DNA of 64,000 nt, taken from IMG/VR virus record IMGVR_UViG_3300005841_000939; one strand, written 5' to 3'. A program made the translations under genes and the position numbers. The DNA comes from a virus (taxonomy: Duplodnaviria; Caudoviricetes). Position 1 is the first letter of the stretch; each line of letters starts with the position of its first letter. The notes beneath the pieces were generated by a model. The model ran no database searches. It was not told the DNA's origin and worked only from the letters and a program-made list of their open reading frames with translations. This document shows positions 30,357 through 54,915 of the stretch, one piece after another.

Positions 30357-30563
30357 TCAATATCCTGACAGCATGTTGAATCGTTTTCGGTCATCTAAGA
30401 AATCCCGAACAATATCTGATATAGATTTTGGTTCAATCAATGGATGATCATACCTATTGTTTTGTTGTTCTAATATAAAAGGAAACATAACATCAATACC
30501 ATATATTGATTCAAAATCTTGTATGGCTTCTTGAGTGTATTTTATTTTCATGATTCTATTCAT
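30357..30563 (-). CDS. KxxR-family protein (divergent)
   Basis: QNNRYDH. Confidence 0.5.
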   Translation of the reverse strand: MNRIMKIKYTQEAIQDFESIYGIDVMFPFILEQQNNRYDHPLIEPKSISDIVRDFLDDRKRFNMLSGY

Positions 30564-30606
30564 AGGATTCTAAGTTTCTTATTGACTTCCGTCTCAAGCA
30601 TGATAG

Positions 30607-31119
30607 CTAGGCCAGTATCATGTCTTTACTGATTTGCAACCACATTTTATGGGTCGCATAGTTCTGACGGTCCATTTTCAATCTTTCTATTGCATCTGTA
30701 GTTTCAATAAAATCTACATGTTCATATTCAAAGGGCAATAAAGCCGGATCTACTTTTTCACCTTTCCGCAAAATAAACAATATAGCAAAAAACTTTATAT
30801 TGACATGACCATTTGAATTTGAAAGACCTTTTCTATCAAGAACTTCTAATTGATATTGATTGTGCGTGACAGATGTTATCTCCATATCTTTTGCACATAA
30901 TTCTAATACTTCTAATGAAAAGGCACTTTCCGCATTACTAATAATAGAATTGACATGATCGTTGTAATGAATAGCAGGTCTTCCCATTCTAGAAACAAAC
31001 CATGCTAAATTATAATGTTTTAAATAATCTACCGGTAAATATTTCCTAAGCGTTATAGCTTCAGGTGTATTTGCTAAGTGGAGGTCCTTAGCAAACATAT
31101 TTTGAACTGGAGGAATCAT
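30607..31119 (-). CDS. 170 aa protein with C-terminal KxxR module
   Basis: KMDRQNY..WLQI at C-terminus. Confidence 0.7.
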   Translation of the reverse strand: MIPPVQNMFAKDLHLANTPEAITLRKYLPVDYLKHYNLAWFVSRMGRPAIHYNDHVNSIISNAESAFSLEVLELCAKDMEITSVTHNQYQLEVLDRKGLSNSNGHVNIKFFAILFILRKGEKVDPALLPFEYEHVDFIETTDAIERLKMDRQNYATHKMWLQISKDMILA

Positions 31120-31291
31120 TAATATGTATACCGCAAATGAACAAAGCCAATCACTAGAGAATCATAGGTGTTTTCTATTGCAACTCTTTCATAACTATAA
31201 TAGGTATAACGATTCATCTTTTCCTGTAGATTAATTTGGATGCTACTATTACCAAATGCTACACCATAATTTTTTCCACCAGTAAATCTAA

Positions 31292-31492
31292 TCATATATA
31301 TTTCTTTAGTATAAAACTTTCCCAGGTATAAACCATATCACTAATATCATAAGTAATTATGGAATGTCTGGATTCTTTTGGTAAGGCTAATAAGTTTTGA
31401 GTAAAAAAGAAAAAATTATCCCATTCAGGACTGTCCCGTTCAAATACTAACGGAACTCTAATAAATTCATTTATTTGAATCCTATTTGCCAT
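31292..31492 (-). CDS. KxxR-family protein
   Basis: KESRHS..TWESF. Confidence 0.65.
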   Translation of the reverse strand: MANRIQINEFIRVPLVFERDSPEWDNFFFFTQNLLALPKESRHSIITYDISDMVYTWESFILKKYI

Positions 31493-31847
31493 ATACGTAA
31501 TTCAAATGGTAAATATCACCAGCACTGGTACCACGTCTAGGATATACTTTCTTTCTACCATTCATGAAACAATCAACAACTTCTTTCCATGTTGATTTAA
31601 TTAATCTCTTCTTGTATTCCTTTGTGTAATCATATCGGTTATCTGTAGCATCCAAATCCATTACAGGATCACCACCCATAGGCTGAACACTTATTAAATC
31701 TTCTATAACTAAAGAAGGGAATGACTGCATAATAGTCGGAAATGCCATGCTATCAAACCCACCAATAGTAGTATTAGGCTTTTTTAAATCATCAGCCCAT
31801 TGTTGTGTATTCTTTAATAATTCGTCTATGTTACTCATTATCTCCAA
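31482..31847 (-). CDS. chimera: T4-type major capsid fragment plus KxxR module
   Basis: GFDSMAFPTIMQSFPSLVIEDLISVQPM and GDIYHLNYVYG flank TDNRYDY..KSTW. Confidence 0.8.
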   Translation of the reverse strand: MEIMSNIDELLKNTQQWADDLKKPNTTIGGFDSMAFPTIMQSFPSLVIEDLISVQPMGGDPVMDLDATDNRYDYTKEYKKRLIKSTWKEVVDCFMNGRKKVYPRRGTSAGDIYHLNYVYGK

Positions 31848-32001
31848 TTATACTGTTTAACTTATCAGACTTCAAGCTATCCCATAAATCATTAAATACT
31901 TGTTTACCATAAACCTTTATAAAATTTTCATTATAAAAACAACTGTTCCTATCATCACGGTAATCTATAAACAAACTGAACCATAAATCTCTATTTGTCA
32001 T
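31831..32001 (-). CDS. KxxR-family protein (56 aa, not in track)
   Basis: RDDRNS..LWDSLKSD. Confidence 0.55.
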   Translation of the reverse strand: MTNRDLWFSLFIDYRDDRNSCFYNENFIKVYGKQVFNDLWDSLKSDKLNSIIGDNE

Positions 32002-32251
32002 TTGGAATTTTTACCATATCATCCCAACGATAACCTTCTAATATATGCTTCTTTTCTATTTCTGAATAAAATACATGATTAGGTACATCCTTACCATACC
32101 GCTTAATAAAGAATGCACATAAAATATGATGCAATGTGTCTTGAACATCTTCTATGGATATACATGGAGGACCTTGATCATATCTCTCACACTTTTCCAA
32201 TAACTGCCGTATTGTTATTATCCTATATCCAATGTCTAATCTAATTCTCAT
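31991..32251 (-). CDS. KxxR-family protein
   Basis: KCERYD. Confidence 0.6.
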   Translation of the reverse strand: MRIRLDIGYRIITIRQLLEKCERYDQGPPCISIEDVQDTLHHILCAFFIKRYGKDVPNHVFYSEIEKKHILEGYRWDDMVKIPNDK

Positions 32252-32384
32252 CTAAGTATTTGTCTTTTATATCTTTAAGTATTATTTCAACATAATCTGA
32301 ATCTTCACAGAGAAAATAATGACATTGTCTATTTTCTTTAGCAATAAATACACTAATTCTAAAATCTTTATGATAAAACGCCAC
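32241..32384 (-). CDS. KxxR-family protein (47 aa, not in track)
   Basis: GTG start; KENRQC..IKDKYL. Confidence 0.55.
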   Translation of the reverse strand: MAFYHKDFRISVFIAKENRQCHYFLCEDSDYVEIILKDIKDKYLDEN

Positions 32385-32389
32385 ACTAA

Positions 32390-32734
32390 TTAACCTAAAT
32401 TAATTTTATAGGACTGAGTATTATCAAACAATATCTCCATAAGCTTTGCAGTACTATTACGCTTTATATGTCTTTCTGCATATCTTTCAACTAGTGATTC
32501 CCATGTAATCTCTATGTTATCCTTTCTATATGTTTTTAAGAAAGGTGAATATCCATACCGTGTTTCTTTATGACTATAAACTAATTCACCATATTTCCTA
32601 GCAACAGCTTTTGGAATAGGTCTATCACAGGAAACTAATTCAGATGGAATAAAATTTGGAAAAGGGGCATTAACTGTCGGGAAATGTATATCATCAAAAC
32701 TCATTTTAAATTTCCTTTTGCAGCATATTTCCAT
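32390..32734 (-). CDS. chimera: degenerate capsid fragment plus KxxR module
   Basis: FDDIHFPTVNAPFPNFIPSELVS then KETRYGY..ITWESLVERY. Confidence 0.7.
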   Translation of the reverse strand: MEICCKRKFKMSFDDIHFPTVNAPFPNFIPSELVSCDRPIPKAVARKYGELVYSHKETRYGYSPFLKTYRKDNIEITWESLVERYAERHIKRNSTAKLMEILFDNTQSYKINLG

Positions 32735-32898
32735 CTAGATTCGGATATTAAATTATCCCATGTTGCTTTAACATTACCAGAATCATAATTATATCCTTTG
32801 TAATTGTTTCGGGTTTCTTTAAGAAATAAATCAATAAATTTGTAAGAAACATCAAATTCTCTTAAATAAATTCCTGGTTTTATATAATTTGTACTCAT
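32701..32898 (-). CDS. chimera: tail-sheath-like N-terminus plus KxxR module
   Basis: YIKPGIYLREFDVS then KETRNNY..ATWDNL. Confidence 0.72.
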   Translation of the reverse strand: MSTNYIKPGIYLREFDVSYKFIDLFLKETRNNYKGYNYDSGNVKATWDNLISESRWKYAAKGNLK

Positions 32899-33143
32899 TC
32901 GTTAACTTTCGTTTAGCTTTTAAAAACTTCTTGACTTGCGGCATTTCTGTGGTAAGATAAATTTTTAGGCTCGGCAAGGAAGGCAACCAAGTTTACAGAC
33001 CCATTTGCTTACTAGAATACCGCTAAGCCGTTTATTGTTATGTTCCTTTATCAATACCTTATTCATATTCATTTTCTTACTCATTTCCCTTTTACTCGTA
33101 TTGGTAATATCTTATTAGCATGTGGCATTGGATTACCGATATA

Positions 33144-33512
33144 TCATGCAACTTTATTAATTCTTTTAATACAAAGCTCTTTCATATAGATTGTTTTATT
33201 TTGGCCTTCAGTAACTAGAGTGTAGAAACATTTTGATTCTATATCTATACCTGCATGCATATTCCATAAGACAGAATCAAGGGATTCCATTTCAGAATCA
33301 CTTGTAGTGTCTATTGAAGCCTTTCTCCATAGAAATACATTTTTAATATGAAGAAAGGCTTGACTAGCTTCTATTGGTTTAGATACTAAATGTCTATCTT
33401 CTTTAGGAAAACAGAATATCACATGGAATCGTTTTCCATGAATAGTTTTATTAAAGCCTTCAATTGGTAATGAAGCATTGCGTTCAGTTGAATAGAATTG
33501 CCAATTACTCAT
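33144..33512 (-). CDS. KxxR-family protein (paralog of 34456)
   Basis: MSNWQFY..FPKEDRH..IKNVFLW. Confidence 0.7.
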   Translation of the reverse strand: MSNWQFYSTERNASLPIEGFNKTIHGKRFHVIFCFPKEDRHLVSKPIEASQAFLHIKNVFLWRKASIDTTSDSEMESLDSVLWNMHAGIDIESKCFYTLVTEGQNKTIYMKELCIKRINKVA

Positions 33513-33712
33513 AGTCTATCCTTGTCTATGCGGGATTGGATTACTGACCTATTATGTAATGAAATAGCTCTATCATTATATGCCCATATTCCTCTTGGAT
33601 CTGATTTCATCCATGACATCTGTAAGAAATCACTTTTTAATTGAGTAAGGCCTGCCAGACCGGTATGATTTAGTCTAAAATGTCTAGTTTCTTTAATTGA
33701 ATTCCTATTCAT
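33509..33712 (-). CDS. KxxR-family protein
   Basis: KETRHF..LKSDFL. Confidence 0.7.
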   Translation of the reverse strand: MNRNSIKETRHFRLNHTGLAGLTQLKSDFLQMSWMKSDPRGIWAYNDRAISLHNRSVIQSRIDKDRL

Positions 33713-34139
33713 AATACCAATCAGGATCCATGAGCGTTAACAGTTTAAATGAGAATATTCCTAAGTCCAAGAAAGAGAAGAATTTAACTAGTCGGAATAG
33801 GAGAGACTTCTTTGGTTTTGGTTGTTCAATGACACGTATACCTGTATCTCTACATGCAGCTACAAACATTGGATACGTAATGAGTGTTTTATCTATTTTA
33901 ATTCGGAATAGTTTGACAAGTACTGGATTCTCTTCTATGAGGACCTCTGTACTTGTAACTTTAGAGAGGAATTTTCTTACGAGACCGTGTACCACCCATT
34001 GTTGCAAAGCACTGGAAACATAGACATCCCTATGGGTTTGATCATGGCAATATGTTTGGCGGGTTATCATGACATCATCAAAATCATGCTGACCAGCAAT
34101 AAGAACAATTTTACCTGCAGAAGTTAATTGAGCTATCAT
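33705..34139 (-). CDS. KxxR-family protein, extended
   Basis: MITRQTY..LVRKFL. Confidence 0.65.
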   Translation of the reverse strand: MIAQLTSAGKIVLIAGQHDFDDVMITRQTYCHDQTHRDVYVSSALQQWVVHGLVRKFLSKVTSTEVLIEENPVLVKLFRIKIDKTLITYPMFVAACRDTGIRVIEQPKPKKSLLFRLVKFFSFLDLGIFSFKLLTLMDPDWYYE

Positions 34140-34456
34140 ATTGTTGATTTACTTACTTGTATACCGTTATCTTCATAGAGAAGTGCTTGTGGATTTCTAC
34201 CTTTCTTTATTTTATGGATTTGGATAGGTGTGAGGTCTTTTATTCTAAATCCATTGTCAATAATATTTTTAACAACCATAAGTTCATGGACCGAATTTTC
34301 TCTTGTAAACATATTCGTAATTCTTTGAACCTGACAGTTGTGTGTAAGATATATGCTCTTGAGATGAGGAAATATGTTATGGATTCTGTGATTGATAGGA
34401 AAAATCCTATCTTGTCTACTAAATTTATGATCTGTATTGAACCAATCAATCTGCAT
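34136..34456 (-). CDS. KxxR-family protein
   Basis: KFSRQD..LKSIYL. Confidence 0.7.
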   Translation of the reverse strand: MQIDWFNTDHKFSRQDRIFPINHRIHNIFPHLKSIYLTHNCQVQRITNMFTRENSVHELMVVKNIIDNGFRIKDLTPIQIHKIKKGRNPQALLYEDNGIQVSKSTI

Positions 34457-34752
34457 TATTTTCTTCTTGTCCTAAAGCTTTTTATGGGATCTTCTGTACC
34501 CATTTTCATATACCATAAAGTAGCATCAAGAGTAGTCATATCATCAATGATGTCTATGTTTAACTTTAGGAATTTCCATAAGAACATTTCTTTTATATTC
34601 ATGAGAGAACCTGAGCTTTCAAGCTCACGAAAGATCGTATGTCTATCTTCTTTAGGGAAGTACGCTAACTCGCGGAAGACCTTTCCTTGAAAATTACATG
34701 TTCTTCTAAACATATACGCATGCGTACCCTCATAAAATTTCCAATTACTCAT
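34456..34752 (-). CDS. KxxR-family protein (paralog of 33144)
   Basis: MSNWKFY..FPKEDRH..IKEMFLW. Confidence 0.7.
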   Translation of the reverse strand: MSNWKFYEGTHAYMFRRTCNFQGKVFRELAYFPKEDRHTIFRELESSGSLMNIKEMFLWKFLKLNIDIIDDMTTLDATLWYMKMGTEDPIKSFRTRRK

Positions 34753-34979
34753 ATGTCATCTATTCCTGTTATGGTCGCATACTTATTAGACATAACTCCA
34801 ACATCATCACCGTAATATTCTAAGAAATCGCTATTAAACACAAGAGCTTGTTCCTCAAGAGTCCATTCAATCCCTTTACCTTTAAAGAAATGTCTTTTGC
34901 GTAATTCCAATTCATGAATAGGGTCGTAGGTAAATCTTCGTTGGCGACATTCTTTACAAAAAATTAATCGTTTATGCAT
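34749..34979 (-). CDS. KxxR-family protein
   Basis: KECRQ..LRKRHFF..IEWTLEEQA. Confidence 0.6.
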   Translation of the reverse strand: MHKRLIFCKECRQRRFTYDPIHELELRKRHFFKGKGIEWTLEEQALVFNSDFLEYYGDDVGVMSNKYATITGIDDI

Positions 34980-35089
34980 CGGAAATAATAGTGATTAAAA
35001 AGATAGAAAGGGGGTAAGTGGCATTCTGCATCGCAAATATGTATAAATACTGATTATCCGTTCATAAATTCATCTTTGCGGTCATAGAC

Positions 35090-35242
35090 TTACAACTTTG
35101 TTGGCTTTAATAATGCTGGAATGAGTGATTTATCGGCATCCCTCGTCCATAATCTGACGCAATATGAGTGTCTAAATTTTCTCCATTTTTCCATATCTGG
35201 CGGCTGAGGTTCTGTATACCTATTAATTATTAAACGTGTCAT
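35090..35242 (-). CDS. KxxR-family protein (50 aa, not in track)
   Basis: IINRYT..WRKFRHSY. Confidence 0.55.
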   Translation of the reverse strand: MTRLIINRYTEPQPPDMEKWRKFRHSYCVRLWTRDADKSLIPALLKPTKL

Positions 35243-35421
35243 GAGTCTTGAAATAGACCTTCAGGGATCATGGCATCACAATAAACTTTTGCTTGTTCTC
35301 GGATAGACCATTCAATGTTTCTTATGACGAAGAATTCTACTTTTAACATGTCAACATAGGCCTCAGAATAAAACATACACCTATAGTATCTTGTTTCCTT
35401 TATGAAGAGTGATCCGTTCAT
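35239..35421 (-). CDS. KxxR-family protein
   Basis: KETRYY..LKVEFF..IEWSIREQA. Confidence 0.7.
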   Translation of the reverse strand: MNGSLFIKETRYYRCMFYSEAYVDMLKVEFFVIRNIEWSIREQAKVYCDAMIPEGLFQDS

Positions 35422-35642
35422 ATATTAACTGGAGGTTGTGGGCAGAGAATGGTATTGATTCTATGTTGGTTATCAAGTAATGACTCACGCATACCTTCTT
35501 CATGTATGAACTCTTCTATAAGAATTGCTACGTCATACTCTATCCAATAAATTAGCAATTTTTTATCCGTCAATCGGTTTATTTTTTTGTCATCATATAT
35601 CATGCGTTGTGTATTCATGAATAAGACGAATTCCGTGTACAT
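35418..35642 (-). CDS. KxxR-family protein
   Basis: KINRLT. Confidence 0.6.
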   Translation of the reverse strand: MYTEFVLFMNTQRMIYDDKKINRLTDKKLLIYWIEYDVAILIEEFIHEEGMRESLLDNQHRINTILCPQPPVNI

Positions 35643-35883
35643 CTAGGAAATTTTGGACATCAAGATTATCATACATAGTTTTTTCGGTTAATTTTAATGC
35701 TTTCACAACAAATTCTATTCCATATATAAAAAACAGAAATTCATCAGCCCTATATGTACAGTTGTATAAGCTTTTAGGATGATGATATTCAAGAGATAGA
35801 TCAGGTGATAAAAACTTACTTTTAAGTGCATTAAATCCATAGGTAACGGAATGATAGCAATATGTATGTCTATTTTCTTTCAT
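35593..35883 (-). CDS. KxxR-family protein (paralog of 37257)
   Basis: KENRHTY..LKSKFL..ADEFLFF. Confidence 0.75.
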   Translation of the reverse strand: MKENRHTYCYHSVTYGFNALKSKFLSPDLSLEYHHPKSLYNCTYRADEFLFFIYGIEFVVKALKLTEKTMYDNLDVQNFLDVHGIRLIHEYTTHDI

Positions 35884-36152
35884 TATTTGAATAGACCCTG
35901 AATACCATATTGATCAAGTATGCACTTTTGTTTTATATCTTTAATTCGGTATTCATTGGCTATGAATGAATTAGGGTTTAAGTTAGATGAAGGATTATCC
36001 GAGGTAATTATTAAACTATCATCTCGTTTCCAACCAAATACATATTCCTTTAATTCAACTAAAGCCATAATTTTTGACTTAAAATTGAAGGGATTTTTAT
36101 ATTGATTTTGCCTATTTATTGGAGTATTGATAAGGGTCAAAATATCTGTCAT
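35883..36152 (-). CDS. KxxR-family protein (paralog of 36973)
   Basis: PINRQN..LKEYVFGWKR..ANEYRIKDI. Confidence 0.75.
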   Translation of the reverse strand: MTDILTLINTPINRQNQYKNPFNFKSKIMALVELKEYVFGWKRDDSLIITSDNPSSNLNPNSFIANEYRIKDIKQKCILDQYGIQGLFK

Positions 36153-36297
36153 ATGTTTCCATTAAAATACTTTGAATTCGCAGGTCATTTGTTCTTATAT
36201 AAATAGAAGGTTTTATTTTTAAGAAGCTTTCTCGTATTTTGCAAGTATACAATAAAAGATCCCCAGCGAAAGGATATGTATTTCTATTGACCTTAAT
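36112..36297 (-). CDS. KxxR-family protein with possible ATT start
   Basis: KVNRNTY..IRESFL..NDLRIQSI; TAAGGA 7 nt upstream of ATT; no ATG. Confidence 0.6.
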   Translation of the reverse strand: MKVNRNTYPFAGDLLLYTCKIRESFLKIKPSIYIRTNDLRIQSILMETYDRYFDPYQYSNK

Positions 36298-36310
36298 ACG
36301 ATATTCCTTA

Positions 36311-36562
36311 TTATTTTATTATACTATCTTTATAGTTATAAGAAGAGAATGAATTACCTAGCCAGTCAGGTTGATGGCATTCTGGTTTAAATCCCCAAAA
36401 TTCTATAAGTTGTTTATGTGTTACAACTTTGTCCCATAATGTTCTTTTGCGGCTTTTTAAATATTCTAGAACAACACGACTTTGCCAATCTTCAAAATAA
36501 TACTTCACTACTGAAGAATCGTAGGTATATCTAGTAGCTTTCATAGTGAAGCGAATCAACAT
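36311..36562 (-). CDS. KxxR-family protein
   Basis: KATRYTY. Confidence 0.7.
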   Translation of the reverse strand: MLIRFTMKATRYTYDSSVVKYYFEDWQSRVVLEYLKSRKRTLWDKVVTHKQLIEFWGFKPECHQPDWLGNSFSSYNYKDSIIK

Positions 36563-36566
36563 AATT

Positions 36567-36971
36567 TTATTTTTTAGACTGGAGGCTGATATTGAAAAAC
36601 TTTTGTATATTTTCCATGTTATGATCTGAATTGTTCATGAAATTATTTAAGTCTAGCAATAAATAAGGGTCTTCTTTAATAACACTAGGACATAATTTTA
36701 TTCCGTATCCAGCCGCAACTATTGGAAAATCACGATGATTATATATGAAGTTTTCATTTACTTTTAAAATTATGCGTAATTGTTTTAGATGATTAGAAAA
36801 TTTAAGAAAAGTATTTGCCCTCTCATCACATGCATATAAAGTTTTTTCTTGTGAATAATGTATATAAAAATCTAGATCATATTTTTCAAAAAATCTTCTT
36901 TTTAATGCTGTTATAGACACTACCATATCATAAATTGAAGGAAGTTCTTCTGAATGTCTATTTATTTTCAT
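36567..36971 (-). CDS. KxxR-family protein
   Basis: KINRHS..LKRRFF. Confidence 0.75.
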   Translation of the reverse strand: MKINRHSEELPSIYDMVVSITALKRRFFEKYDLDFYIHYSQEKTLYACDERANTFLKFSNHLKQLRIILKVNENFIYNHRDFPIVAAGYGIKLCPSVIKEDPYLLLDLNNFMNNSDHNMENIQKFFNISLQSKK

Positions 36972-36972
36972 T

Positions 36973-37260
36973 TTAGGTCAAGTATCTAAATTTAGTTGGT
37001 GCTGACATATATTTTTCAAAATCTTCTGATTTAATAAGTTCTCTAATTCGGAATTCGTTAGAGATAAAAGATTCTGGCTTATGTGTCCTTGTTTTTGTAA
37101 TCTCATTGTAGATAAATGAATCTTTCCGTTTCCATCCAAAGTAAGATTCCTTAAGAATAATAATGCAAGTAATGCGATCCCTTGGAGCATATCTCTCTAT
37201 ATACGTGTGTCTATTCATCTTTTCTTGAATAGATTGTAGTGTGTGCATGGTTTCAATCAT
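36973..37260 (-). CDS. KxxR-family protein
   Basis: KMNRHTY..LKESYFGWKR..SNEFRIREL. Confidence 0.75.
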   Translation of the reverse strand: MIETMHTLQSIQEKMNRHTYIERYAPRDRITCIIILKESYFGWKRKDSFIYNEITKTRTHKPESFISNEFRIRELIKSEDFEKYMSAPTKFRYLT

Positions 37261-37529
37261 GAAATTAGTTTAATATCATAACTGTTAAGACAATTAATAA
37301 CACGCTGATTAGTAAATATATCCTTATCTTTTATTCCTAGGTCTTTTTTAGCAGCATCAACCCAACGTGAGAAAAAATAGAATTCATCTGCTTTGACAGA
37401 ATACCATTGCAGACCTTTAAATACATTTAAAGATAATGGAAGGAGATTTGGTCTAAACTCCGATTTTAATGTAGTAAATCCGGTATAAACACTTAGCTTG
37501 CCTTTATATGTTTGTCTATTTTCTTTCAT
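37257..37529 (-). CDS. KxxR-family protein
   Basis: KENRQTY..LKSEF..ADEFYFF. Confidence 0.75.
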   Translation of the reverse strand: MKENRQTYKGKLSVYTGFTTLKSEFRPNLLPLSLNVFKGLQWYSVKADEFYFFSRWVDAAKKDLGIKDKDIFTNQRVINCLNSYDIKLIS

Positions 37530-37536
37530 TTAATTA

Positions 37537-37779
37537 TCAGTCTTGCGCTGCATCCAAAGAATCTTTAAGGTATTGGTCTTTTCTTATTTCTAATATTCTT
37601 TTTTCATTTGCTGTAATTGATCTATCATTTGAATATATATTAGGCTCATCATAAGTTTTTGTTATGCCAAAAAATGTGTATTTAATATCTCTAAGAAAAA
37701 TAATAGGTGATCTTGGAAAATTATTTTTATATGTCTGTCTATTAAATTTTATTTTTAAAATTTTTATTGCAGGTAACAT
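37537..37779 (-). CDS. KxxR-family protein
   Basis: KFNRQTY..IKYTFF..ANEKRILEI. Confidence 0.75.
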   Translation of the reverse strand: MLPAIKILKIKFNRQTYKNNFPRSPIIFLRDIKYTFFGITKTYDEPNIYSNDRSITANEKRILEIRKDQYLKDSLDAAQD

Positions 37780-37780
37780 G

Positions 37781-37975
37781 TTAATATAATACTATACTAA
37801 TATTTTCAATACGAAATCTAGGTGGAAATAAAAGTTCTCTTACTCTATCTTCATATTCAAACATCATTTTCATATTTTTATCATCTGTGTAATTTAAAAA
37901 ACGATATTTCAACATGACTATTCCAGCAAATGGAGGATTTTTAATATATGTATTCCTATTTTGTTTTATTGGCAT
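37781..37975 (-). CDS. KxxR-family protein
   Basis: KQNRNTY..LKYRFL..YEDRVREL. Confidence 0.75.
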   Translation of the reverse strand: MPIKQNRNTYIKNPPFAGIVMLKYRFLNYTDDKNMKMMFEYEDRVRELLFPPRFRIENISIVLY

Positions 37976-37977
37976 AG

Positions 37978-41337: not shown

Positions 41338-41349
41338 ATGTTACCTATT

Positions 41350-41782: not shown

Positions 41783-41784
41783 GT

Positions 41785-47008: not shown

Positions 47009-47232
47009 ATGTAAAGACGATGTTTTCCAGTTCTACGCAAATAATGAACATTCAATGCATATAGTGCTTTACTATGCCAACTTCTATCGTAATGAGTTAA
47101 ATAGACGAAATATTCCTCCATTATTAAAGAGAATTGTTCATGAAATTTTTTAGCTTTAAGTACATTGAAATCGTCTCTTACTTCAACTGCACTATATACA
47201 GGAATATGGTTTTGACGGTCTATTTTTTCCAT
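47005..47232 (-). CDS. KxxR-family protein
   Basis: KIDRQN..FNVLKAKKF. Confidence 0.75.
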   Translation of the reverse strand: MEKIDRQNHIPVYSAVEVRDDFNVLKAKKFHEQFSLIMEEYFVYLTHYDRSWHSKALYALNVHYLRRTGKHRLYI

Positions 47233-47510
47233 AGGTAGACCTTATTTCGTATATAGGATCTTTTCCTTTTGTTTCTTTTTATTCTTTTATCATTTATCCT
47301 ATTATTATAAAATATATTTGCAACTCTAATGTCACCTGAATCACATTTATTTAAATAATAAACACAATCTTCAAGGTTTATTTTATAATCCTTGTAAAAT
47401 AACTTTGCTTTTATCCGATTAAAGCTAATTTTAATATAATCTAGGGGATAATCTATACGACTATACCTATTAACTTTTTTATTGAGGCTTTTATTTATGT
47501 TAAGCATCAA
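47220..47510 (-). CDS. KxxR-family protein
   Basis: KVNRYS..FNRIKAKLF. Confidence 0.7.
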   Translation of the reverse strand: MMLNINKSLNKKVNRYSRIDYPLDYIKISFNRIKAKLFYKDYKINLEDCVYYLNKCDSGDIRVANIFYNNRINDKRIKRNKRKRSYIRNKVYLWKK

Positions 47511-47539
47511 TACGGTATTTTATTGATGCATATAAAAAA

Positions 47540-47773
47540 TCAATCAATAACACTATGTGGAATTGATAATAGTGTTTTAGGGTCATCAATTGATATAAGA
47601 AATAAATAAAGTTTAGTCTCAGGATCATACACTCCTTGAGGATTTTTTGTAAACGAGATGAACGAATATTTATTACTTGACCAATGCTGGCTAAAAAATC
47701 TATATGATTTTAATTCGTTAATGCATGTTAATCTATTAATTTTCATATTTTTTTGTAAATTCAATGACACCAA
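47540..47773 (-). CDS. KxxR-family protein
   Basis: KINRLT..WSSNKYSF. Confidence 0.7.
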   Translation of the reverse strand: MVSLNLQKNMKINRLTCINELKSYRFFSQHWSSNKYSFISFTKNPQGVYDPETKLYLFLISIDDPKTLLSIPHSVID

Positions 47774-48059
47774 CTAAATTTAAATGCCATGTATAAGAAT
47801 TCATACCATGCACGTATGTATTTTCTTTCTCTGGAATAAATCTGTAAATCATTTCTTGTGTTGAACTATCATTTATGTTACTTATGTAATGTTTACAATC
47901 TGTATAGTAATTATATAACAAGAAGGCTGCACAATTATCTGCCCACTCAAAAGAATCTAATCCATAACTATTTGAATATTTTCCATTTTTATGCCATACC
48001 ATAACTAATGCATAATCTTGTCTATCTATTTTTCTATCATCATATGTTATTGGATTCAT
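47736..48059 (-). CDS. KxxR-family protein
   Basis: KIDRQDY. Confidence 0.7.
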   Translation of the reverse strand: MNPITYDDRKIDRQDYALVMVWHKNGKYSNSYGLDSFEWADNCAAFLLYNYYTDCKHYISNINDSSTQEMIYRFIPEKENTYVHGMNSYTWHLNLVGVIEFTKKYEN

Positions 48060-48412
48060 TTGAAATTATAAACTCCCTCAATATATTCTGTTGGGTCAAA
48101 TTCACTGAAATCCCAACCAGTTATTTCATCATGTTCATTTCTATATATAATTGCATATGTTTGCGGAAAAGAGAGCGTAACTTTCATATCTTCTGCAGGC
48201 AACATAAGTTTCCTATCAAATAACCAACGAATTCTATAAAAAGCCCATCCTTTCCAATAATGAGCTATATTCCAATCCCACATGAAAAAATACATCTTTT
48301 TAAGAGATGATGGATCATATTGACGATTGAATTTAATATCTATAAACTCATGTGAAAATATTTCACCTGGTAAAAGATTATCCTCATAAAATGACAGCGG
48401 CATATTTGCCAT
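48056..48412 (-). CDS. KxxR-family protein
   Basis: KFNRQY. Confidence 0.7.
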   Translation of the reverse strand: MANMPLSFYEDNLLPGEIFSHEFIDIKFNRQYDPSSLKKMYFFMWDWNIAHYWKGWAFYRIRWLFDRKLMLPAEDMKVTLSFPQTYAIIYRNEHDEITGWDFSEFDPTEYIEGVYNFK

Positions 48413-48702
48413 TACGTGTAATCCTCATAAGATAAACAATTATAGAGAGGTTGAGCAATTATATCTTTAAATCGTGAATGATGATCCAATAACTTTTCAT
48501 CCATCAAGAACGTTAATTTATAAAATTGCAGGTCTCTAAATGACTCTTTCCACTTTACATTATTATTTTGATTGTGTCTAGTAATTTTTGCATACAGGTC
48601 TTCAAACTCCATAACCGTATAAAGATTATGTCCTGAAATACCACTTTTATCAGGAATCAAGTCAAAACGTAAATTCCTGATTCTTATTTTTGCCGCAGCC
48701 AT
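48412..48702 (-). CDS. KxxR-family protein (module C-terminal)
   Basis: KITRHN..FRDLQFYKLTFL. Confidence 0.7.
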   Translation of the reverse strand: MAAAKIRIRNLRFDLIPDKSGISGHNLYTVMEFEDLYAKITRHNQNNNVKWKESFRDLQFYKLTFLMDEKLLDHHSRFKDIIAQPLYNCLSYEDYT

Positions 48703-48911
48703 TCTATTTTATCCCTTGGATCATTTATGCCTAGTAGAGAGATTAATTCAGATTTAGATAATTCATTATTCCAAATTCTATTTCTATGTTGTTCTATAAA
48801 ATTGGCAACCAATATGCTTCGCCAACCATTGAGAATTTCATATCTAGGATTATCTAATGCGGTATAATTATACCTATCCTCATAATCATGCCTTGTCTTT
48901 AAAATACTCAT
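48684..48911 (-). CDS. KxxR-family protein
   Basis: LKTRHDY..WRSILVANF. Confidence 0.7.
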   Translation of the reverse strand: MSILKTRHDYEDRYNYTALDNPRYEILNGWRSILVANFIEQHRNRIWNNELSKSELISLLGINDPRDKIEWLRQK

Positions 48912-48929
48912 AAGTTTCGCAAATTAATC

Positions 48930-49130
48930 TTATAATTTTGTTTTGTTAGTTTTAAACTTTCTTTCCTCTACAACCTTCCACAATCCAGTTTCTAAATTAA
49001 TGTGAATTTCAAAAATTCTATTTGGGAATTTTTTGTTTAAAAAGTTTTTAGAACAAAATCCAAAATAATCCTCAGAACAAGCTGTTGTATCAGGATAATT
49101 ATATCTATGAATTTTATCTTGAATGCACAT
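48930..49130 (-). CDS. KxxR-family protein
   Basis: KIHRYNY..SKNFL..NRIFEI. Confidence 0.7.
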   Translation of the reverse strand: MCIQDKIHRYNYPDTTACSEDYFGFCSKNFLNKKFPNRIFEIHINLETGLWKVVEERKFKTNKTKL

Positions 49131-49305
49131 AATTTTTCTTCAAAACATTAAACAATGAAAATCTGTAATCAGATGACATATTTAAACTTTTTTTATATCT
49201 TGTGTCTTTTTTATTTATCAATTCATCATAATTTAATTTATCTGCATTAGTTTTCATCATATATAACTGAAAATCAATATTTTCTTCAAAAAAATCTTGA
49301 TTCAT
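49114..49305 (-). CDS. KxxR-family protein
   Basis: KDTRYK..FNVLKKNY. Confidence 0.7.
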   Translation of the reverse strand: MNQDFFEENIDFQLYMMKTNADKLNYDELINKKDTRYKKSLNMSSDYRFSLFNVLKKNYVHSR

Positions 49306-49529
49306 AATGGTATCTCAAATAAATTATATCTAAAAATAGTTGTTGGTATTGAACTTATAAATCTTTCTCTTAAACTTCTCCATGTAATATCAAGTCTATC
49401 ATATGGTTGATCGTTATTGATAGGGCGGATTGATCCCAGACGATGCATAATTAATTCAGAAGGATATGTAATTGACCATTCAGGTGTTTGCCTCCAATGT
49501 TTATATGTTTCACGACTAACTTTTTTCAT
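49302..49529 (-). CDS. KxxR-family protein
   Basis: KVSRETY..ITWRSLRERF. Confidence 0.75.
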   Translation of the reverse strand: MKKVSRETYKHWRQTPEWSITYPSELIMHRLGSIRPINNDQPYDRLDITWRSLRERFISSIPTTIFRYNLFEIPL

Positions 49530-49734
49530 TAAAAATCCAATGTTTTTTATGAGTCTCTATTATTTCTTCTATTGTATACCCCAAAGATTGTATATGCAAA
49601 TAACCATTTGGTAATACCGAATAATTAGGTATAGTATCTGGAAAATTCTTTAAAAACAATTCAGGATATGCTTTCCAAGAAGCGTACTGATGTCTGTTGA
49701 TTTTATTTTGGAGAATAAGATTTGTTAATATCAT
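49516..49734 (-). CDS. KxxR-family protein
   Basis: KINRHQY. Confidence 0.7.
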   Translation of the reverse strand: MILTNLILQNKINRHQYASWKAYPELFLKNFPDTIPNYSVLPNGYLHIQSLGYTIEEIIETHKKHWIFNEKS

Positions 49735-50180
49735 AAATCATATTGCCATTCTTTTCCTGCTTTAAATCCATATTTAAGATATGCTGCTTGAGCTTTCATG
49801 TTGGTATCTTCAACAAACAACGTCAGTTTATCACACCCTTCAGCTATGGCTATCTTTTTGCAAGCATCTAGCAGTCTCATTAAGTGACCTCTTCGTCTAA
49901 ATTCTTGTGCAATAATGACACCGTCAATATATAAATTTTTGGCGTTTCTCCAATCACTAAATTTAAATGATGCTCTCAGACATCCAACATAATTTTCTTC
50001 ATCTTCAGCGATCAGATAAAATCCATGTTCAGCAGTTTTTGCATTAAGAATTGTTGTTATTCCATCAACTAACTTTGGAGGAATTTCATTATATTCTTCC
50101 ATTGCCAAATTATATTGGAGGAAGATTAATGGGGTTAAATGTTCTATTGTAGCTCTGCGTATTGTCATAATATTATTCAA
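49731..50180 (-). CDS. GNAT acetyltransferase
   Basis: LYIDGVIIAQEFRRRGH motif A; LFVEDTNMKAQAAYLKYGF motif B. Confidence 0.9.
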   Translation of the reverse strand: MNNIMTIRRATIEHLTPLIFLQYNLAMEEYNEIPPKLVDGITTILNAKTAEHGFYLIAEDEENYVGCLRASFKFSDWRNAKNLYIDGVIIAQEFRRRGHLMRLLDACKKIAIAEGCDKLTLFVEDTNMKAQAAYLKYGFKAGKEWQYDL

Positions 50181-50478
50181 AGGATGATGGTTTACTTTCC
50201 ATCACATAAACTGTTGTTTGATGTGACGATGGAAATACTACTAAATGCTTTTTAATTAAAAAATCCAATCTTATGTACGCTATTGGATACAGATGCAATT
50301 TATAGAAAAGTAAACCTTGGAAAGAATTTCTTGTAATCTTATGTGAAAGAACATGATCTGTTGTAGTTGTATATACTCTTTCTCTAAAATCTTTTGCAGT
50401 TGCAACATATTCACTGCCCAAAAAACTATAATTTACTATGTCCACACGTACTTTCAATGGTTCAAAATGCAATTGCAT
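50173..50478 (-). CDS. KxxR-family protein (module C-terminal)
   Basis: KITRNSF..IRLDFL. Confidence 0.7.
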   Translation of the reverse strand: MQLHFEPLKVRVDIVNYSFLGSEYVATAKDFRERVYTTTTDHVLSHKITRNSFQGLLFYKLHLYPIAYIRLDFLIKKHLVVFPSSHQTTVYVMESKPSSFE

Positions 50479-50480
50479 AA

Positions 50481-50747
50481 TTAATATTTGTAAATTTCTA
50501 ATAAACGTGGCGTGGAATCATCATGTATTTTAACAAAATAAAATCTTGTTGCTAACCAATATTTAACAAAATCATTTGATAATTTTATTTCTATTGAATA
50601 TCTATTAAATTTTGAAAATCTCCTACGATTATAGGTTTTAAGAACCCAGTCTATTTGTATATGATCAGTATCATCGCTTACAAGCAACTCCTCAAAATAA
50701 GGATTTTGTTTAGGCTTAGGCACGAAATATTTAAAAAAAGAATTCAT
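50481..50747 (-). CDS. KxxR-family protein (module C-terminal)
   Basis: KFNRYS..WLATRFYF. Confidence 0.7.
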   Translation of the reverse strand: MNSFFKYFVPKPKQNPYFEELLVSDDTDHIQIDWVLKTYNRRRFSKFNRYSIEIKLSNDFVKYWLATRFYFVKIHDDSTPRLLEIYKY

Positions 50748-50995
50748 ACCACATATCCTTTTGGCTCAATAACTCCTTTTGTTTTAAGAAAATAAAATCG
50801 CATATAATGCAAGAAGTACCATTGAAAATTTTGTTTGATTACATGTCTATGAACAACACTATTAACTTCTGAATAAAATACCAGAATATCAGACCTTTGC
50901 AAAAATCCGTCAGTGTTTACTACAGCTAAACTATATCTAGGAATTTCAAACTTGCAAAATGCAGCATTATGATAATTAAAACTAATAGACATCAA
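50744..50995 (-). CDS. possible divergent KxxR-family protein
   Basis: VVHRHV..MRFYFL. Confidence 0.55.
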   Translation of the reverse strand: MMSISFNYHNAAFCKFEIPRYSLAVVNTDGFLQRSDILVFYSEVNSVVHRHVIKQNFQWYFLHYMRFYFLKTKGVIEPKGYVV

Positions 50996-51690
50996 AAAAT
51001 TTCAGCTTTAACAATATCAAGAACCTGTTTACATTTTTCTAAATCAAATAAATCGTTAGTTCTTAGTTTTGATTCCATATCAATCCAAGTTGGAATTGTT
51101 TCTGTTTTACTCAGAATATCTAATAGGTTTTCTTTGACATTTTCTGGACCCATTCCACCTGCATATCCACAATACCTACCAGGAAGTGGTTCCTGCCATT
51201 TGGTTGCTTCAATTCCACGGCCACCCGATGCATCAAATAGGAATGCGTGGTTCGTATAATGAACCATATGATGCCATATATGCCCATTACTGACATTATG
51301 CTGCGTTAAAAACGTTTTGTCTGGTGTTAGTACAAACAAATTTTCTAAGTCGCTTAAATCAAATGGATTTTTATGTATGTTGAAATTTAGCTGAATCCGT
51401 TGAAATGGTTTAATCAAGGTAAGCATTTCATGATCACCATTTAATATTCTAGGAACTGCATCTCCGCACAAATGAATAGCAAAATTGCCTGTATGTCGTT
51501 TATATATTTCTTCTGAAAGTTCTTTAATCCATTTTTCACTTGGGTATCGCCCACCACCTCCACACCTTTTTGGTGAAAATAATATACCCCATTCAACAAA
51601 GTTGTATTGATCACTCAATTCAAATAACTTATTGATAGGAGTTGAATCATCAGCACCAGTCAAGGTACAAATAAATTTAGGACGATACAT
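50992..51690 (-). CDS. TrpF (phosphoribosylanthranilate isomerase)-like TIM-barrel protein
   Basis: LFDASGGRG, GYAGGMGPENV, WIDMESKLR motifs. Confidence 0.75.
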   Translation of the reverse strand: MYRPKFICTLTGADDSTPINKLFELSDQYNFVEWGILFSPKRCGGGGRYPSEKWIKELSEEIYKRHTGNFAIHLCGDAVPRILNGDHEMLTLIKPFQRIQLNFNIHKNPFDLSDLENLFVLTPDKTFLTQHNVSNGHIWHHMVHYTNHAFLFDASGGRGIEATKWQEPLPGRYCGYAGGMGPENVKENLLDILSKTETIPTWIDMESKLRTNDLFDLEKCKQVLDIVKAEIF

Positions 51691-51743
51691 AAGAGCTTTC
51701 TAATTGTTGTTGACAACTAACATTTTTATTTGAAAATCGTAAT

Positions 51744-51932
51744 ATGTCAAGAGCACAATTACTAGAAGAAATCAAAAAATTAGAGGATCAAGAATCACAA
51801 TTGATGATTCAATGGTCTGAGGCTACAGATCCTTTAATTATTGAATTACTTTCTGCAACATTGGAATTGACAAGAGCAGGTATAAAATTATCTAAAGTTG
51901 GACTTAAAATTGAAGACGCTAATAGATTTTAG
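51744..51932 (+). CDS. small coiled-coil protein on the opposite strand
   Basis: heptad pattern; TTGACA at 51711 upstream; fills a gap between - strand genes. Confidence 0.6.
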   Translation: MSRAQLLEEIKKLEDQESQLMIQWSEATDPLIIELLSATLELTRAGIKLSKVGLKIEDANRF

Positions 51933-52219
51933 AAAAACAATCTAGTAAACTTCTCGCGAGTTTTTATTTTATATTTATTTGATAAGAATAACAAACATAA
52001 GACTACAAAATTTTCATTCTCAATTTTTTCATATGTTTCAATATTAGTATTACGTGTAAACTTATAAGTTTTATCACTTATAATCATATAACATATCCAC
52101 TCATTACGATGATATATTATCTCACATGGCGAATGACTTATTAATGTTATTGATGCTGTACGAAAATTTGTAGAGCCAATTAACTTTGCAGGCTTTAATG
52201 TAGTATTCTCCAAGTTCAT
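51929..52219 (-). CDS. KxxR-family protein (module C-terminal)
   Basis: KFTRNT..FVVLCLLFL. Confidence 0.65.
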   Translation of the reverse strand: MNLENTTLKPAKLIGSTNFRTASITLISHSPCEIIYHRNEWICYMIISDKTYKFTRNTNIETYEKIENENFVVLCLLFLSNKYKIKTREKFTRLFF

Positions 52220-52328
52220 ATAAGTACTTTTGATTATTTCGCGTTACTTTTCTATTAAGTTCATATAAAGCTAATTGCAATTGAATTAATTCAGAATCAC
52301 TAAAATCAGAATAGTAATCTTTCATCAA
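52122..52328 (-). CDS. KxxR-family protein
   Basis: KVTRNN..YYIKACKVNWL. Confidence 0.65.
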   Translation of the reverse strand: MMKDYYSDFSDSELIQLQLALYELNRKVTRNNQKYLYELGEYYIKACKVNWLYKFSYSINNINKSFAM

Positions 52329-52530
52329 CAGACATTATAACACCTTTATCAATTAACCATTTTGTGCGCCAATATATAAACCCATCAGACGTATTATAAA
52401 TGTCAAAAATATATTTACTTGTTTGACGATTTACATTACACTTTAGATCATTCCATTCCTCTTCATAATATATGTCGCTTGAATCCTTGACATTAATTTT
52501 GAATACTCTCTCAAACATAGTATATCGCAA
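52306..52530 (-). CDS. KxxR-family protein
   Basis: NVNRQT..YWRTKWL. Confidence 0.65.
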   Translation of the reverse strand: MRYTMFERVFKINVKDSSDIYYEEEWNDLKCNVNRQTSKYIFDIYNTSDGFIYWRTKWLIDKGVIMSVDERLLF

Positions 52531-52556
52531 GTTTACAGTGTTCTTTTGTTAAGCAA
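52530..52556 (-). promoter_or_regulatory. sigma70-like promoter, 15 bp spacer
   Basis: TTGCTT-N15-TAAACT pointing into the array. Confidence 0.55.
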
Positions 52557-52585
52557 TCAAGAAGTGTTTCCTAAACATAAAGGAT

Positions 52586-52879
52586 TTAAGAGATAGCATG
52601 CGCCACCATTTCCTCATCCTCACATGTATTTTTTGCAAGCCATAAATGCGAAACTATTTCAAACCCTACGCCAAAGAATTCATGATCATAATCCATCAAA
52701 TCTTCTTTAATGGCATAAGTTCCATATCTAGATTCTGGCATCATAAGCATATATACAAAACATAATAACATTTCGCTATCAGTTTCATTAAATCCACCAT
52801 ATATTTCAGAAATTTCTTCATAATATTTTTCAGAAATACAATATGAATCCACTTCTCTATCACGTATGTCTAGCGCCAT
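52586..52879 (-). CDS. acidic protein, possible divergent KxxR member
   Basis: PESRYGTY..IKEDL. Confidence 0.6.
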   Translation of the reverse strand: MALDIRDREVDSYCISEKYYEEISEIYGGFNETDSEMLLCFVYMLMMPESRYGTYAIKEDLMDYDHEFFGVGFEIVSHLWLAKNTCEDEEMVAHAIS

Positions 52880-53238
52880 TGATTTTTGTCCGATAAAAAT
52901 TCTAAAAATTGGTTTTCATGTTTAATATCATTTAAAAATAATATAGACAATGCAATAAGTTTAATTTCAGCATCTATTGCGTCTTTAAAAAATAAATTAT
53001 TTTCTTCTTCATACCTACCTATTTTTTCAGCATCTTTATCTATTTTCAATGCCATTTTAAGATATTTTTTATTTCTAGGAACTTCAAAAACAAATCCCCT
53101 ACCATGTTCAAGCGTTGAATAATTTGAAATTATATTTATGGTATCATTGAAATACCGACGAAAACTAGTATTATCTTCATCCTTAAAAGTAAAATACAAA
53201 GAATGACCTTCGCTATCTTTTCTCATGAAGATTATCAT
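52870..53238 (-). CDS. KxxR-family protein (module C-terminal)
   Basis: KIGRYE. Confidence 0.7.
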   Translation of the reverse strand: MIIFMRKDSEGHSLYFTFKDEDNTSFRRYFNDTINIISNYSTLEHGRGFVFEVPRNKKYLKMALKIDKDAEKIGRYEEENNLFFKDAIDAEIKLIALSILFLNDIKHENQFLEFLSDKNQWR

Positions 53239-53558
53239 TCAATGTCCCTAAACACCATTTTCTTCCATTCTATATCTTTTTCATTAAACCACAACCATTT
53301 TAGTTCAACAAGAGAACAAGGTCTGTTTGAATCGCAAAAATCTTTATCTTCTGATTGTGTTAATCTATTATTAAATCTACTTACTTGTTCATTAATATAT
53401 TTAAGAATAGATGATTTTGACATTACCCAATGACAAGAATTATCTTCTAAGTCAGTGACATATAACCATATGTGTTTATTATGTTTTTCACGAAGGATTC
53501 TTCCTACTTGAAAAAACTTAGATTGTGAGGAATCATACACTTGTAAAAAGCTATCCAT
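53235..53558 (-). CDS. KxxR-family protein (module C-terminal)
   Basis: QVSRFN..LVELKWLWF. Confidence 0.6.
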   Translation of the reverse strand: MDSFLQVYDSSQSKFFQVGRILREKHNKHIWLYVTDLEDNSCHWVMSKSSILKYINEQVSRFNNRLTQSEDKDFCDSNRPCSLVELKWLWFNEKDIEWKKMVFRDIE

Positions 53559-53622
53559 AACGTAAATTCCTTATGGTAAAATGATTTCAAAACTTAATAT
53601 CTATAACTATCTATACTCTCTT

Positions 53623-53892
53623 TCAATTGAAAAACCCAAAATGTGCATAAAAATATTCACCGCTTGCCTCTACATCAGAATATTTTCTTTGTAAAAAATG
53701 CGTAACTAACATCGCTAAATTACAATTTTTAAATGTATTACCACCGTTGTCATGCCTGTTTATTTTAATTGATAATGATATATTGATCTCTTTGTATGAA
53801 GGAAAAACTATAGAACCTTCTTTAACACGAAGATAAAACAAATCTTCACAGCAAATGGATATTACTTTATCATAAATAAAGTCCATTACCAT
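53623..53892 (-). CDS. KxxR-family protein (module C-terminal)
   Basis: KINRHD..LVTHFL. Confidence 0.7.
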   Translation of the reverse strand: MVMDFIYDKVISICCEDLFYLRVKEGSIVFPSYKEINISLSIKINRHDNGGNTFKNCNLAMLVTHFLQRKYSDVEASGEYFYAHFGFFN

Positions 53893-54200
53893 TTTATCTC
53901 ATATTCTGTTGTGATAAATACTTCTGTACAATTCATATCCGTCTTATCATCAGTGTTTAAAAACTTTTTAATAAGTATAGGCATTGGAATAGTTACAATC
54001 ATGAATGTATTTGTTATATCTTGTCTTCCAATTTTTATCTGAAGAAGTTGATCAACATATGATATTCTTAATCTTACTGTTTGTATAGTGTCATCTTTAG
54101 TATTAATTACATATTGGTCATTTTCAACATGAACTGTTCCTCTTTTTATTAAAGATACATATGTAATTACTGGATCAAAACTAGGCAGTTGGTATTGCAT
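53886..54200 (-). CDS. KxxR-family protein (module C-terminal)
   Basis: KIGRQD..LIKKFL. Confidence 0.7.
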   Translation of the reverse strand: MQYQLPSFDPVITYVSLIKRGTVHVENDQYVINTKDDTIQTVRLRISYVDQLLQIKIGRQDITNTFMIVTIPMPILIKKFLNTDDKTDMNCTEVFITTEYEIKW

Positions 54201-54486
54201 GTTTTTTATTCCAATCGCGCTGATGGACTTCCCACATGACAGCCAATGTTAAAGTATAATCCTCATAGGTTTTCTTAATGCGCAAATATTTTAATGGATC
54301 AAACATCTTTTCTGGATTGATGTTTATCCAATCTTTAACAGTTTCGCGCTGCATGTCCTTCAATAGTTCACGTTGAAACGCAAGCTCATGGGCATATTCT
54401 TTAATAAAAAATTCTTCAAATTTTTTATCTGTATACCGAAATACAAATCCGGATTCATCATCCCATGATTCAGGCTTTAAGATCAT
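54181..54486 (-). CDS. hypothetical protein
   Basis: 101 aa ORF; only weak motif similarity (DMQRET). Confidence 0.6.
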   Translation of the reverse strand: MILKPESWDDESGFVFRYTDKKFEEFFIKEYAHELAFQRELLKDMQRETVKDWININPEKMFDPLKYLRIKKTYEDYTLTLAVMWEVHQRDWNKKHAIPTA

Positions 54487-54911: not shown

Positions 54912-54915
54912 TTTA

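Follow-up and report, generated by a model that had tools for sequence, protein, structure and literature searches.

A phage-private tandem family of small proteins with a predicted arm-plus-hairpin fold in a rhizosphere phage

Crowded loci of small genes are known from several viruses. Bacillus phage SPO1 (genes 37-60) has a host-takeover cluster of such genes, which are early and lie behind host-type promoters, and the Twort-like phages have theirs in the terminal repeats. The internal-protein locus of phage T4 encodes variable small proteins that share a short N-terminal capsid-targeting element and have a counter-defence role (IPI*), and African swine fever virus (MGF110/360) and the poxviruses (gene 'accordions') carry tandem paralog families tied to host range and immune evasion. 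The jumbo phages G and 121Q contain arrays in which more than 30 similar genes follow one another, and tandem duplication was given as the explanation (Hua et al. 2017, mBio, PMC5646251). Here, we analysed a stretch of 64,000 nucleotides (64 kb) from a virus of the class Caudoviricetes (IMG/VR record IMGVR_UViG_3300005841_000939), hereafter called the window, and found on its minus strand a long array of small open reading frames (ORFs), most of which carry a K-x-x-R motif. We conclude firmly that they constitute a new, phage-private multigene family of small proteins with a predicted arm-plus-hairpin fold, which arose by tandem and block duplication with module shuffling and is under constraint.

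The array is of the same kind as those of phages G and 121Q, with more copies, much deeper divergence and fusions. As in these phages, a very large phage genome contains dozens of paralogs from a single uncharacterised family of small proteins, side by side and in the same orientation. However, the family itself is unrelated to theirs, as a profile search found nothing outside this phage, and the copies are about twice as many (61-67 versus more than 30). Moreover, the copies of G and 121Q are 'very similar', whereas identity among the copies studied here is at most 55%, with a synonymous divergence (dS) of at least 1.5, and the module has been fused to other segments, including capsid fragments. 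With the SPO1 and Twort-like clusters the array shares the dense one-strand runs of tiny genes, but the genes of those clusters are mostly unrelated to one another, whereas here they belong to one family, for which we infer early timing. Like the T4 internal proteins, the members are small and share a short element; in contrast to those, the motif is often internal, lacks a cleavage site and is part of a predicted helical domain. The African swine fever virus and poxvirus families are likewise tandem paralogs in a large virus, but the proteins and hosts are unrelated, and the present array bears no sign of recent copy-number change.

To define the family, we used a strict motif, K.[NTDSG]R[QHYN][STDN], which occurs 43 times on the minus strand of 30-54.5 kb, spread over the three frames (13, 15 and 15). 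It was not found on the plus strand of the array and was found once in the remainder of the 64 kb. A hidden Markov model (HMM) was iterated four times, and its threshold was set at 9.1 bits, the top score among 3894 shuffled or reversed controls. We found that 61 minus-strand ORFs of the array outscored the best control; within the window, none on the plus strand and none beyond the array did so. Similarly, a position-specific scoring matrix (PSSM) of the motif placed 25 of the 54 ORFs without the strict form above the 95th percentile of shuffles, where 2.7 were expected, and none of 357 control ORFs lay beyond the 99th percentile. Two further motifs follow the first one: [LIVM][KR]xx[FYW] in 23 of 42 strict members (6.0 +/- 2.3 in shuffles, z 7.4) and [NDYSEH][ED]xR[ILVMT] in 11 of 42 (0.9 +/- 0.9, z 11). 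Pairwise BLAST links also form chains among the members. Taken together, about 61-67 of the 96 ORFs of the array are secure members, and further degenerate variants can be seen by eye.

These results bear on an earlier note, written by a model from the letters of this stretch, which had described an array of small KxxR proteins here. The array is real, both by the motif, HMM and PSSM statistics against controls and by the tiling of its ORFs on the minus strand; the two downstream motifs are enriched at the distances which the note had described; and the HMM comparison with shuffled controls that it had proposed left 61 array ORFs above the best control. Its count of about 70 members plus about 10 short or non-ATG ones was of the right order and slightly generous. 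The span that it gave, 30357-54486, does contain the family, which starts slightly earlier, at 30186.

We further studied whether the motif is conserved as protein or as DNA. The invariant arginine is encoded by AGA (25), CGT (7), AGG (7), CGA (2) and CGG (1), in proportions that match background use, and the invariant lysine by AAA (35) and AAG (7). The use of both AGR and CGN codons for the same arginine indicates selection at the protein level. DNA repeats in the array comprise only stretches of 24-57 nucleotides, all of which encode the motif, so that the earlier statement that there is no DNA-level repeat unit holds except for these. A DNA-level or regulatory origin of the motif was excluded, given both arginine codon families, the three frames, the intra-ORF sites and the limitation of the repeats to the motif-coding 24-57-mers.

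The same genes are carried on a contig of 379,560 bases from rhizosphere metagenomes, which puts the phage genome above 200 kb, and the window has phage-type content, namely rIIA-like and gp23-type capsid-like sequences and three transfer RNAs (tRNAs). The coordinates of the array and of the features discussed below are collected in Table 1. Over the whole array, ORFs cover 96% of the minus strand and 28% of the plus strand. Junctions are mainly overlaps; there are 23 of the ATGA start/stop overlaps which the earlier note had pointed out, and eight gaps longer than 50 nucleotides. The GC content is 26-33% at about 30-55 kb versus 38-58% in the remainder of the window. In the central block, the motif starts within residues 1-16 in 27 of the 29 strict members, while 12 of the 13 strict members at the array ends have N-terminal extensions, which are mutually unrelated. 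The members have a median isoelectric point (pI) of 8.5; 54% of them lie above 8 and a quarter are acidic, and cysteine accounts for 1.3% of the residues. Of the non-ATG members that had been proposed, at least one was confirmed, at 36112-36297. Its frame (36112-36312) opens right behind the stop of the upstream gene, and the ATT at 36297, a candidate start, is the sole near-cognate start before the motif, which suggests reinitiation or non-canonical initiation.

Two members from different subfamilies, 19% identical to each other, were modelled with AlphaFold. In model 1, the motif lies in a coil (residues 11-17), followed by a helix (23-38), a hairpin (46-57) and a second helix (62-83). In model 2, it lies in a coil (6-12) and is followed by a helix (13-31), a loop and a helix (47-60). 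What the two models predict in common is a basic, polar arm joined to an alpha-hairpin whose connector varies. In the module, the N-terminal arm, K-x-[NT]-R-x-[ST]-Y with invariant lysine and arginine, precedes two helices, of which helix 1 has a hydrophobic LKxxF[L] pattern and helix 2 an NExRIxxI pattern. The conserved positions are mostly in the lysine/arginine arm and at hydrophobic helix sites, while the surfaces vary. The idea of a conserved scaffold with a variable remainder is thus borne out by two models with the same coil-helix-connector-helix layout, and the unrelated predicted folds which had been named as a sign against a single family were not seen in this pair.

The fold and sequence were then compared with known proteins. 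Foldseek searches of both models against PDB, BFVD and AFDB clusters gave E values above 0.2, which is noise only. In the ESM Atlas, a shape search reached template-modelling (TM) scores of at most 0.39 and a feature search gave no match. VIA-align of both models returned best Z scores of 3.8 and 4.7 to generic helical hairpins, which for the value of 4.7 were N-terminal helical hairpins of kinases. A sequence profile search of the PDB found no match for the family. When 36 members were scanned against curated families, the best single-member E values were 0.0015 (PHROGs), 0.041 (Pfam) and 0.0011 (AbiI of PADLOC), none of which is significant. The family, which the earlier note did not recognise, is therefore without a match in Pfam, PHROGs, PADLOC and PDB sequences and without a significant fold match.

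To see how far the family extends, a profile of 55 domains was run on 1.84 billion sequences that represent about 15 billion proteins. There were 24 matches at E <= 1e-3, and every one was an ORF of the window. No family match was found in LR745208 and LR756511, the two nearest phage records, and megablast of the array against phage records returned nothing. Directly upstream of the array, a Ser/Thr kinase and a PP2C phosphatase are encoded, and this pair is kept in the same order in distant huge-phage contigs that have no array. At two syntenic loci of kinase homologues (L007 and L008), neither the motif nor the HMM gave a match, and ordinary genes follow the PP2C-kinase pair. Since relatives keep PP2C and kinase without the array, the array is private to this lineage and sits just downstream of a conserved pair. 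The proposal of a lineage-specific expansion is thus sustained, with only the phage's own copies retrieved by the profile search and zero members at the PP2C-kinase loci of relatives, where copy number was to be compared. In addition, scans of IMG/VR with the kinase and with the family, in which no conserved stretch has sufficient length for such a scan, found nothing, and the N-terminal parts of long members had no match in two huge-phage genomes.

The history of the array was examined through its closest copies. The best paralog pairs are 52%, 38%, 39% and 36% identical and lie 4, 4, 6 and 4 genes apart (4, 4, 6, 4, 4 and 4 when the list is extended to six pairs), which indicates duplication of multi-gene blocks alongside that of single genes. 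The closest pair (39058-39288 and 39932-40156) has 52% identity over 59 amino acids, with a nonsynonymous divergence (dN) of 0.37 and a dS of 1.7. For the five closest pairs, dN was 0.37-0.76 and dS 1.5-2.9; dN was below dS in all five, with dN/dS of 0.22-0.46. This ratio had been suggested as a check, and it could be obtained; as dS is saturated, nothing more can be read from it than that the copies are old and under some constraint. Mean column identity in the family alignment is 12%. The array is 100% identical on contigs from three rhizosphere metagenome samples, and a fourth, low-share run (X3) holds the same phage at low depth. The word 'hypervariable', taken as ongoing variation, thus finds no support in the identity across three assemblies or in dN/dS of 0.22-0.46 at saturated dS. 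These data strongly imply that single genes and blocks of about 4-6 genes were duplicated repeatedly as the array expanded, that deep divergence followed, and that the copies have been kept open with their invariant residues intact.

It is also strongly implied that the module was fused to unrelated N-terminal segments, including fragments of a gp23-type major capsid protein, and two or three members bear such fragments around the module. In the member at 31482-31847, residues 10-59 align with positions 52-100 of a gp23-type capsid protein from a huge phage (E 6e-6) and also match a cyanophage capsid protein (E 3e-7); all of the 15 tblastn matches listed are annotated capsid or vertex genes, except for one unannotated record. 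Its diverged paralog at 32390-32734 has no significant capsid similarity of its own. The member at 40376-40735 matches Pfam Gp23 (PF07068) with E 2.5e-4 and 21 bits, below the cut-off of 24.4, and aligns pairwise with capsid residues 432-447 (E 4e-4). Its 76 residues extend over 42 profile positions (310-351 of 376), indicating that the module sits as an insert. By these alignments, the chimeras contain fragments of capsid proteins and are not themselves capsid proteins. Derivation of the module from a capsid protein, considered because of KTRYG-like strings, was excluded, as hhalign of the family profile against the capsid alignment gave a probability of 0.04%; hence the module was joined to capsid fragments and did not descend from them. 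The phage's own capsid gene was not among the matches listed for the capsid query of a relative, which consist of thousands of near-identical clade capsid proteins. A sheath-derived N-terminus of the member at 32701-32898 could not be confirmed, since the relative gave no sheath profile match and the peptide is too short.

The signals around the array were inspected for its timing. GGAG lies between the promoter candidate at the array head (Table 1) and the first ATG. Shine-Dalgarno motifs before internal starts are not enriched (23% versus 19% at random positions), which is compatible with translational coupling. No copy of the T4-type late box TATAAATA occurs on the coding strand of 30186-55213, where 5.5 +/- 2.2 were expected from dinucleotide shuffles (P ~0.005), and TTGACA is somewhat depleted on this strand (6 versus 11.6 expected). 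The extended -10 promoter and the missing TATAAATA box hint at early timing.

Based on the above results, the likeliest reading, to which we give a little less than an even chance, is that the array supplies an early-expressed set of small binders for host takeover, counter-defence or phage competition. Early transcription of the array from a host-type promoter, downstream of the kinase and PP2C genes, would yield a single polycistronic message, or a few of them, with coupled translation. The arm and hairpin that all copies share would provide the fold or a docking contact common to them, and each copy would have a separate target owing to its variable surfaces or to the segments appended to it. 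The proteins may thereby serve to take over the host, to counter its defences or to exclude competing phages. Several observations weigh against this reading. A cross-validated HMM of the whole post-motif region hardly parts held-out members from shuffles, indicating that homology past the arm is weak for about half of the members, for which it rests on short motifs, pairwise BLAST chains and models. The identical array in all samples gives no sign of the rapid turnover expected at an arms-race locus. A generic promoter and terminator scan of the AT-rich array performed no better than on shuffles, the late-box argument presumes that this phage uses TATAAATA late promoters, and the runs that contain the sequence are all DNA metagenomes, with no RNA run among them.

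Other functions were weighed against the same data. The members could be small nucleic-acid-binding proteins, in which the arm pairs in a dimer or enters the groove as in ribbon-helix-helix proteins and the helices form the dimer core, the paralogs being regulators or DNA/RNA coat proteins of different specificity. Ribbon-helix-helix proteins (45-90 amino acids) likewise have two helices behind a short N-terminal segment of polar or basic character. The arm-helix-helix order of both models, the helix that begins directly past the motif in model 2 and the basic pI of more than half of the members speak for this. However, the Pfam scan revealed no ribbon-helix-helix or other DNA-binding family, no such structure was among the fold matches listed, the inter-helix connector has 15-25 residues where a tight turn would be expected, and the acidic quarter of the members fits poorly, so we regard it as unlikely. 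Decidedly unlikely, in our view, is that the copies merely fill the genome, as tandem duplicates tolerated by a roomy head with little function for most single copies, an explanation put forward for phages G and 121Q. The arrays of those phages were read as expansion by tandem duplication (Hua et al. 2017, PMC5646251), and absence of the array from relatives shows that it is dispensable for the clade. Nevertheless, these old copies are nearly all still open frames of about 75 codons in DNA of 27% GC, with the lysine and arginine kept, dN below dS in the closest pairs and almost complete ORF coverage, whereas neutral duplicates would have decayed. The capsid chimeras allow a further proposal, that the arm-plus-hairpin is a universal carrier for a library of displayed peptides or surfaces, including pieces of the phage's own virion proteins, namely the C-terminus of the capsid protein and its region that corresponds to the T4 Gol peptide. 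Such a germline 'mimic library' would provide early decoys for capsid-sensing host systems or assembly poisons for rival phages, and we consider it quite improbable.

The position of the motif within the first 16 residues throughout most of the central block, with variable bodies behind a common N-terminal element, would also suit a capsid-targeting signal on varied small proteins that are ejected with the DNA, like the capsid-targeting sequence of the T4 internal proteins. This is very improbable, because at least 14 strict members have 22-147 residues ahead of the motif, the alignments contain no conserved cleavage site after it, the coding strand lacks the late-promoter box that head proteins should have, and the conserved helices behind the motif make it look like part of a domain. 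The kinase and PP2C genes directly upstream on the same strand raise the idea that the arm is a phospho-acceptor site (arginine at -2 and lysine at -5 of the serine or threonine) in phospho-switched small proteins. Position +2 past the arginine is indeed serine or threonine in 27 of 42 strict motifs and otherwise aspartate or asparagine, a preference partly imposed by the search pattern. Yet relatives without the array keep the kinase-PP2C pair, indicating other substrates, which leaves this idea highly improbable. That there is no single homologous family, only a convergent short motif, a translation-start effect (AAA as second codon) or chance frames in AT-rich DNA, would agree with the low column identity and the weak cross-validated profile. 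It is largely refuted, and we leave it a slim chance, given that the motif is internal as well as at starts, the arginine codons vary, the second and third motifs are enriched at fixed distances, and the BLAST chains, the shared model layout and the one-strand coverage all point to one family. Also largely refuted, with a chance close to nil, is that the genes encode precursors of ribosomal natural products, with a conserved leader, a variable core and a neighbouring kinase-domain enzyme as in class III/IV lanthipeptides. The kinase does match the LanL model weakly (E 1.3e-7), and many small genes share a conserved N-terminal element. However, this match is limited to the kinase domain and scores 30 bits where the cut-off is 650, neither a lyase nor a cyclase domain was found, cysteine is scarce, the members have 50-130 amino acids with predicted folded helices, and the kinase is kept in relatives without the array.

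Table 1. Positions of the array, its selected members and adjacent features in the window (pLDDT, predicted local distance difference test)
Feature	Position	Strand	Basis or remark
Whole co-directional array	30186..55134	minus	96 non-nested ORFs of at least 40 amino acids, median 76 amino acids
Span containing every detected family member (about 61-67)	30186..54200	minus	HMM and PSSM versus shuffled controls
Central block, most AT-rich, minimal forms	35090..48059	minus	Motif position in strict members
Chimera, N-terminal major-capsid fragment enclosing a short form of the module	31482..31847	minus	Alignments, tblastn
Diverged paralog of the 31482-31847 chimera	32390..32734	minus	31% identity over 74 amino acids, E 1e-5
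Member with three motifs and no ATG/GTG/TTG start	36112..36297	minus	Translation of 36112-36312 and gap sequence
Representative member, 95 amino acids, model 1	36973..37260	minus	AlphaFold2 with paralog alignment, pLDDT 87
Closest paralog pair, 39058-39288 / 39932-40156	39058..40156	minus	Example of block duplication
Chimera, telescoped C-terminal capsid pieces around the module	40376..40735	minus	Pfam Gp23 and pairwise alignment
Representative member, 68 amino acids, other subfamily, model 2	43355..43561	minus	AlphaFold, pLDDT 79
Embedded non-family GNAT acetyltransferase	49731..50180	minus	Pfam PF00583, E 5.7e-16
Embedded non-family gene, 232 amino acids	50992..51690	minus	No family match
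Sigma-70-like promoter candidate, extended -10, TTTAAA-16-TGGTATAAT	55178..55205	minus	Consensus match only
Ser/Thr kinase (560 amino acids) and PP2C phosphatase	55214..57699	minus	Pfam; directly upstream of the array

Two genes that do not belong to the family are embedded in the array (Table 1). The one of 232 amino acids had no match in Pfam, PHROGs or NCBIfam; it contains Gly-rich strings which by eye recall TIM-barrel phosphate-binding enzymes. The kinase upstream of the array consists of a kinase domain and about 300 amino acids in which neither Pfam nor NCBIfam domains were matched. Metagenomes contain more than 160 of its homologues. Kinase homologues are at most 34% identical, with the exception of one on a 1.3-kb contig, and among phage records the kinase is best matched by metagenomic phages of 460-595 kb. 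Three adjacent minus-strand ORFs of 305-314 amino acids (59851-62729) have no Pfam match; at the matching place upstream of PP2C, two or three genes for proteins of about 300 amino acids are present in relatives. At the other side, plus-strand genes for a SprT-like metalloprotease and an HNH nuclease (27895-28485 and 29409-29933) converge on the 3' end of the array. Further away, two plus-strand genes occupy 22080-25488: an rIIA-like gene of 802 amino acids, which is 25-27% identical to the annotated rIIA of many phages, and behind it a gene of 310 amino acids, which has no family match and is possibly rIIB. Genes for tRNA-Lys, tRNA-Leu and tRNA-Arg are close by (18394-18752 and 25546-25621). 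The GC content spikes to 58% at 12000-14000, where long overlapping ORFs occur at 12179-13072 (minus) and 12188-13021 (plus).

Generality and testability are limited for now by the restriction of the family to a single uncultured soil phage. Through the chimeras with capsid fragments, there is a concrete link to capsid-sensing immunity that can be tested. Provided that the copies are functional binders, this would possibly be the largest single-family expansion reported in a phage, compared with the arrays of more than 30 genes described before (Hua et al. 2017, PMC5646251). They would then form a natural library on a minimal scaffold of about 50 residues, which could interest protein engineers. 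The array would then also be relevant to the question of what giant phages do with their additional coding space, whether it serves host takeover and counter-defence or reflects ratchet-like genome growth.

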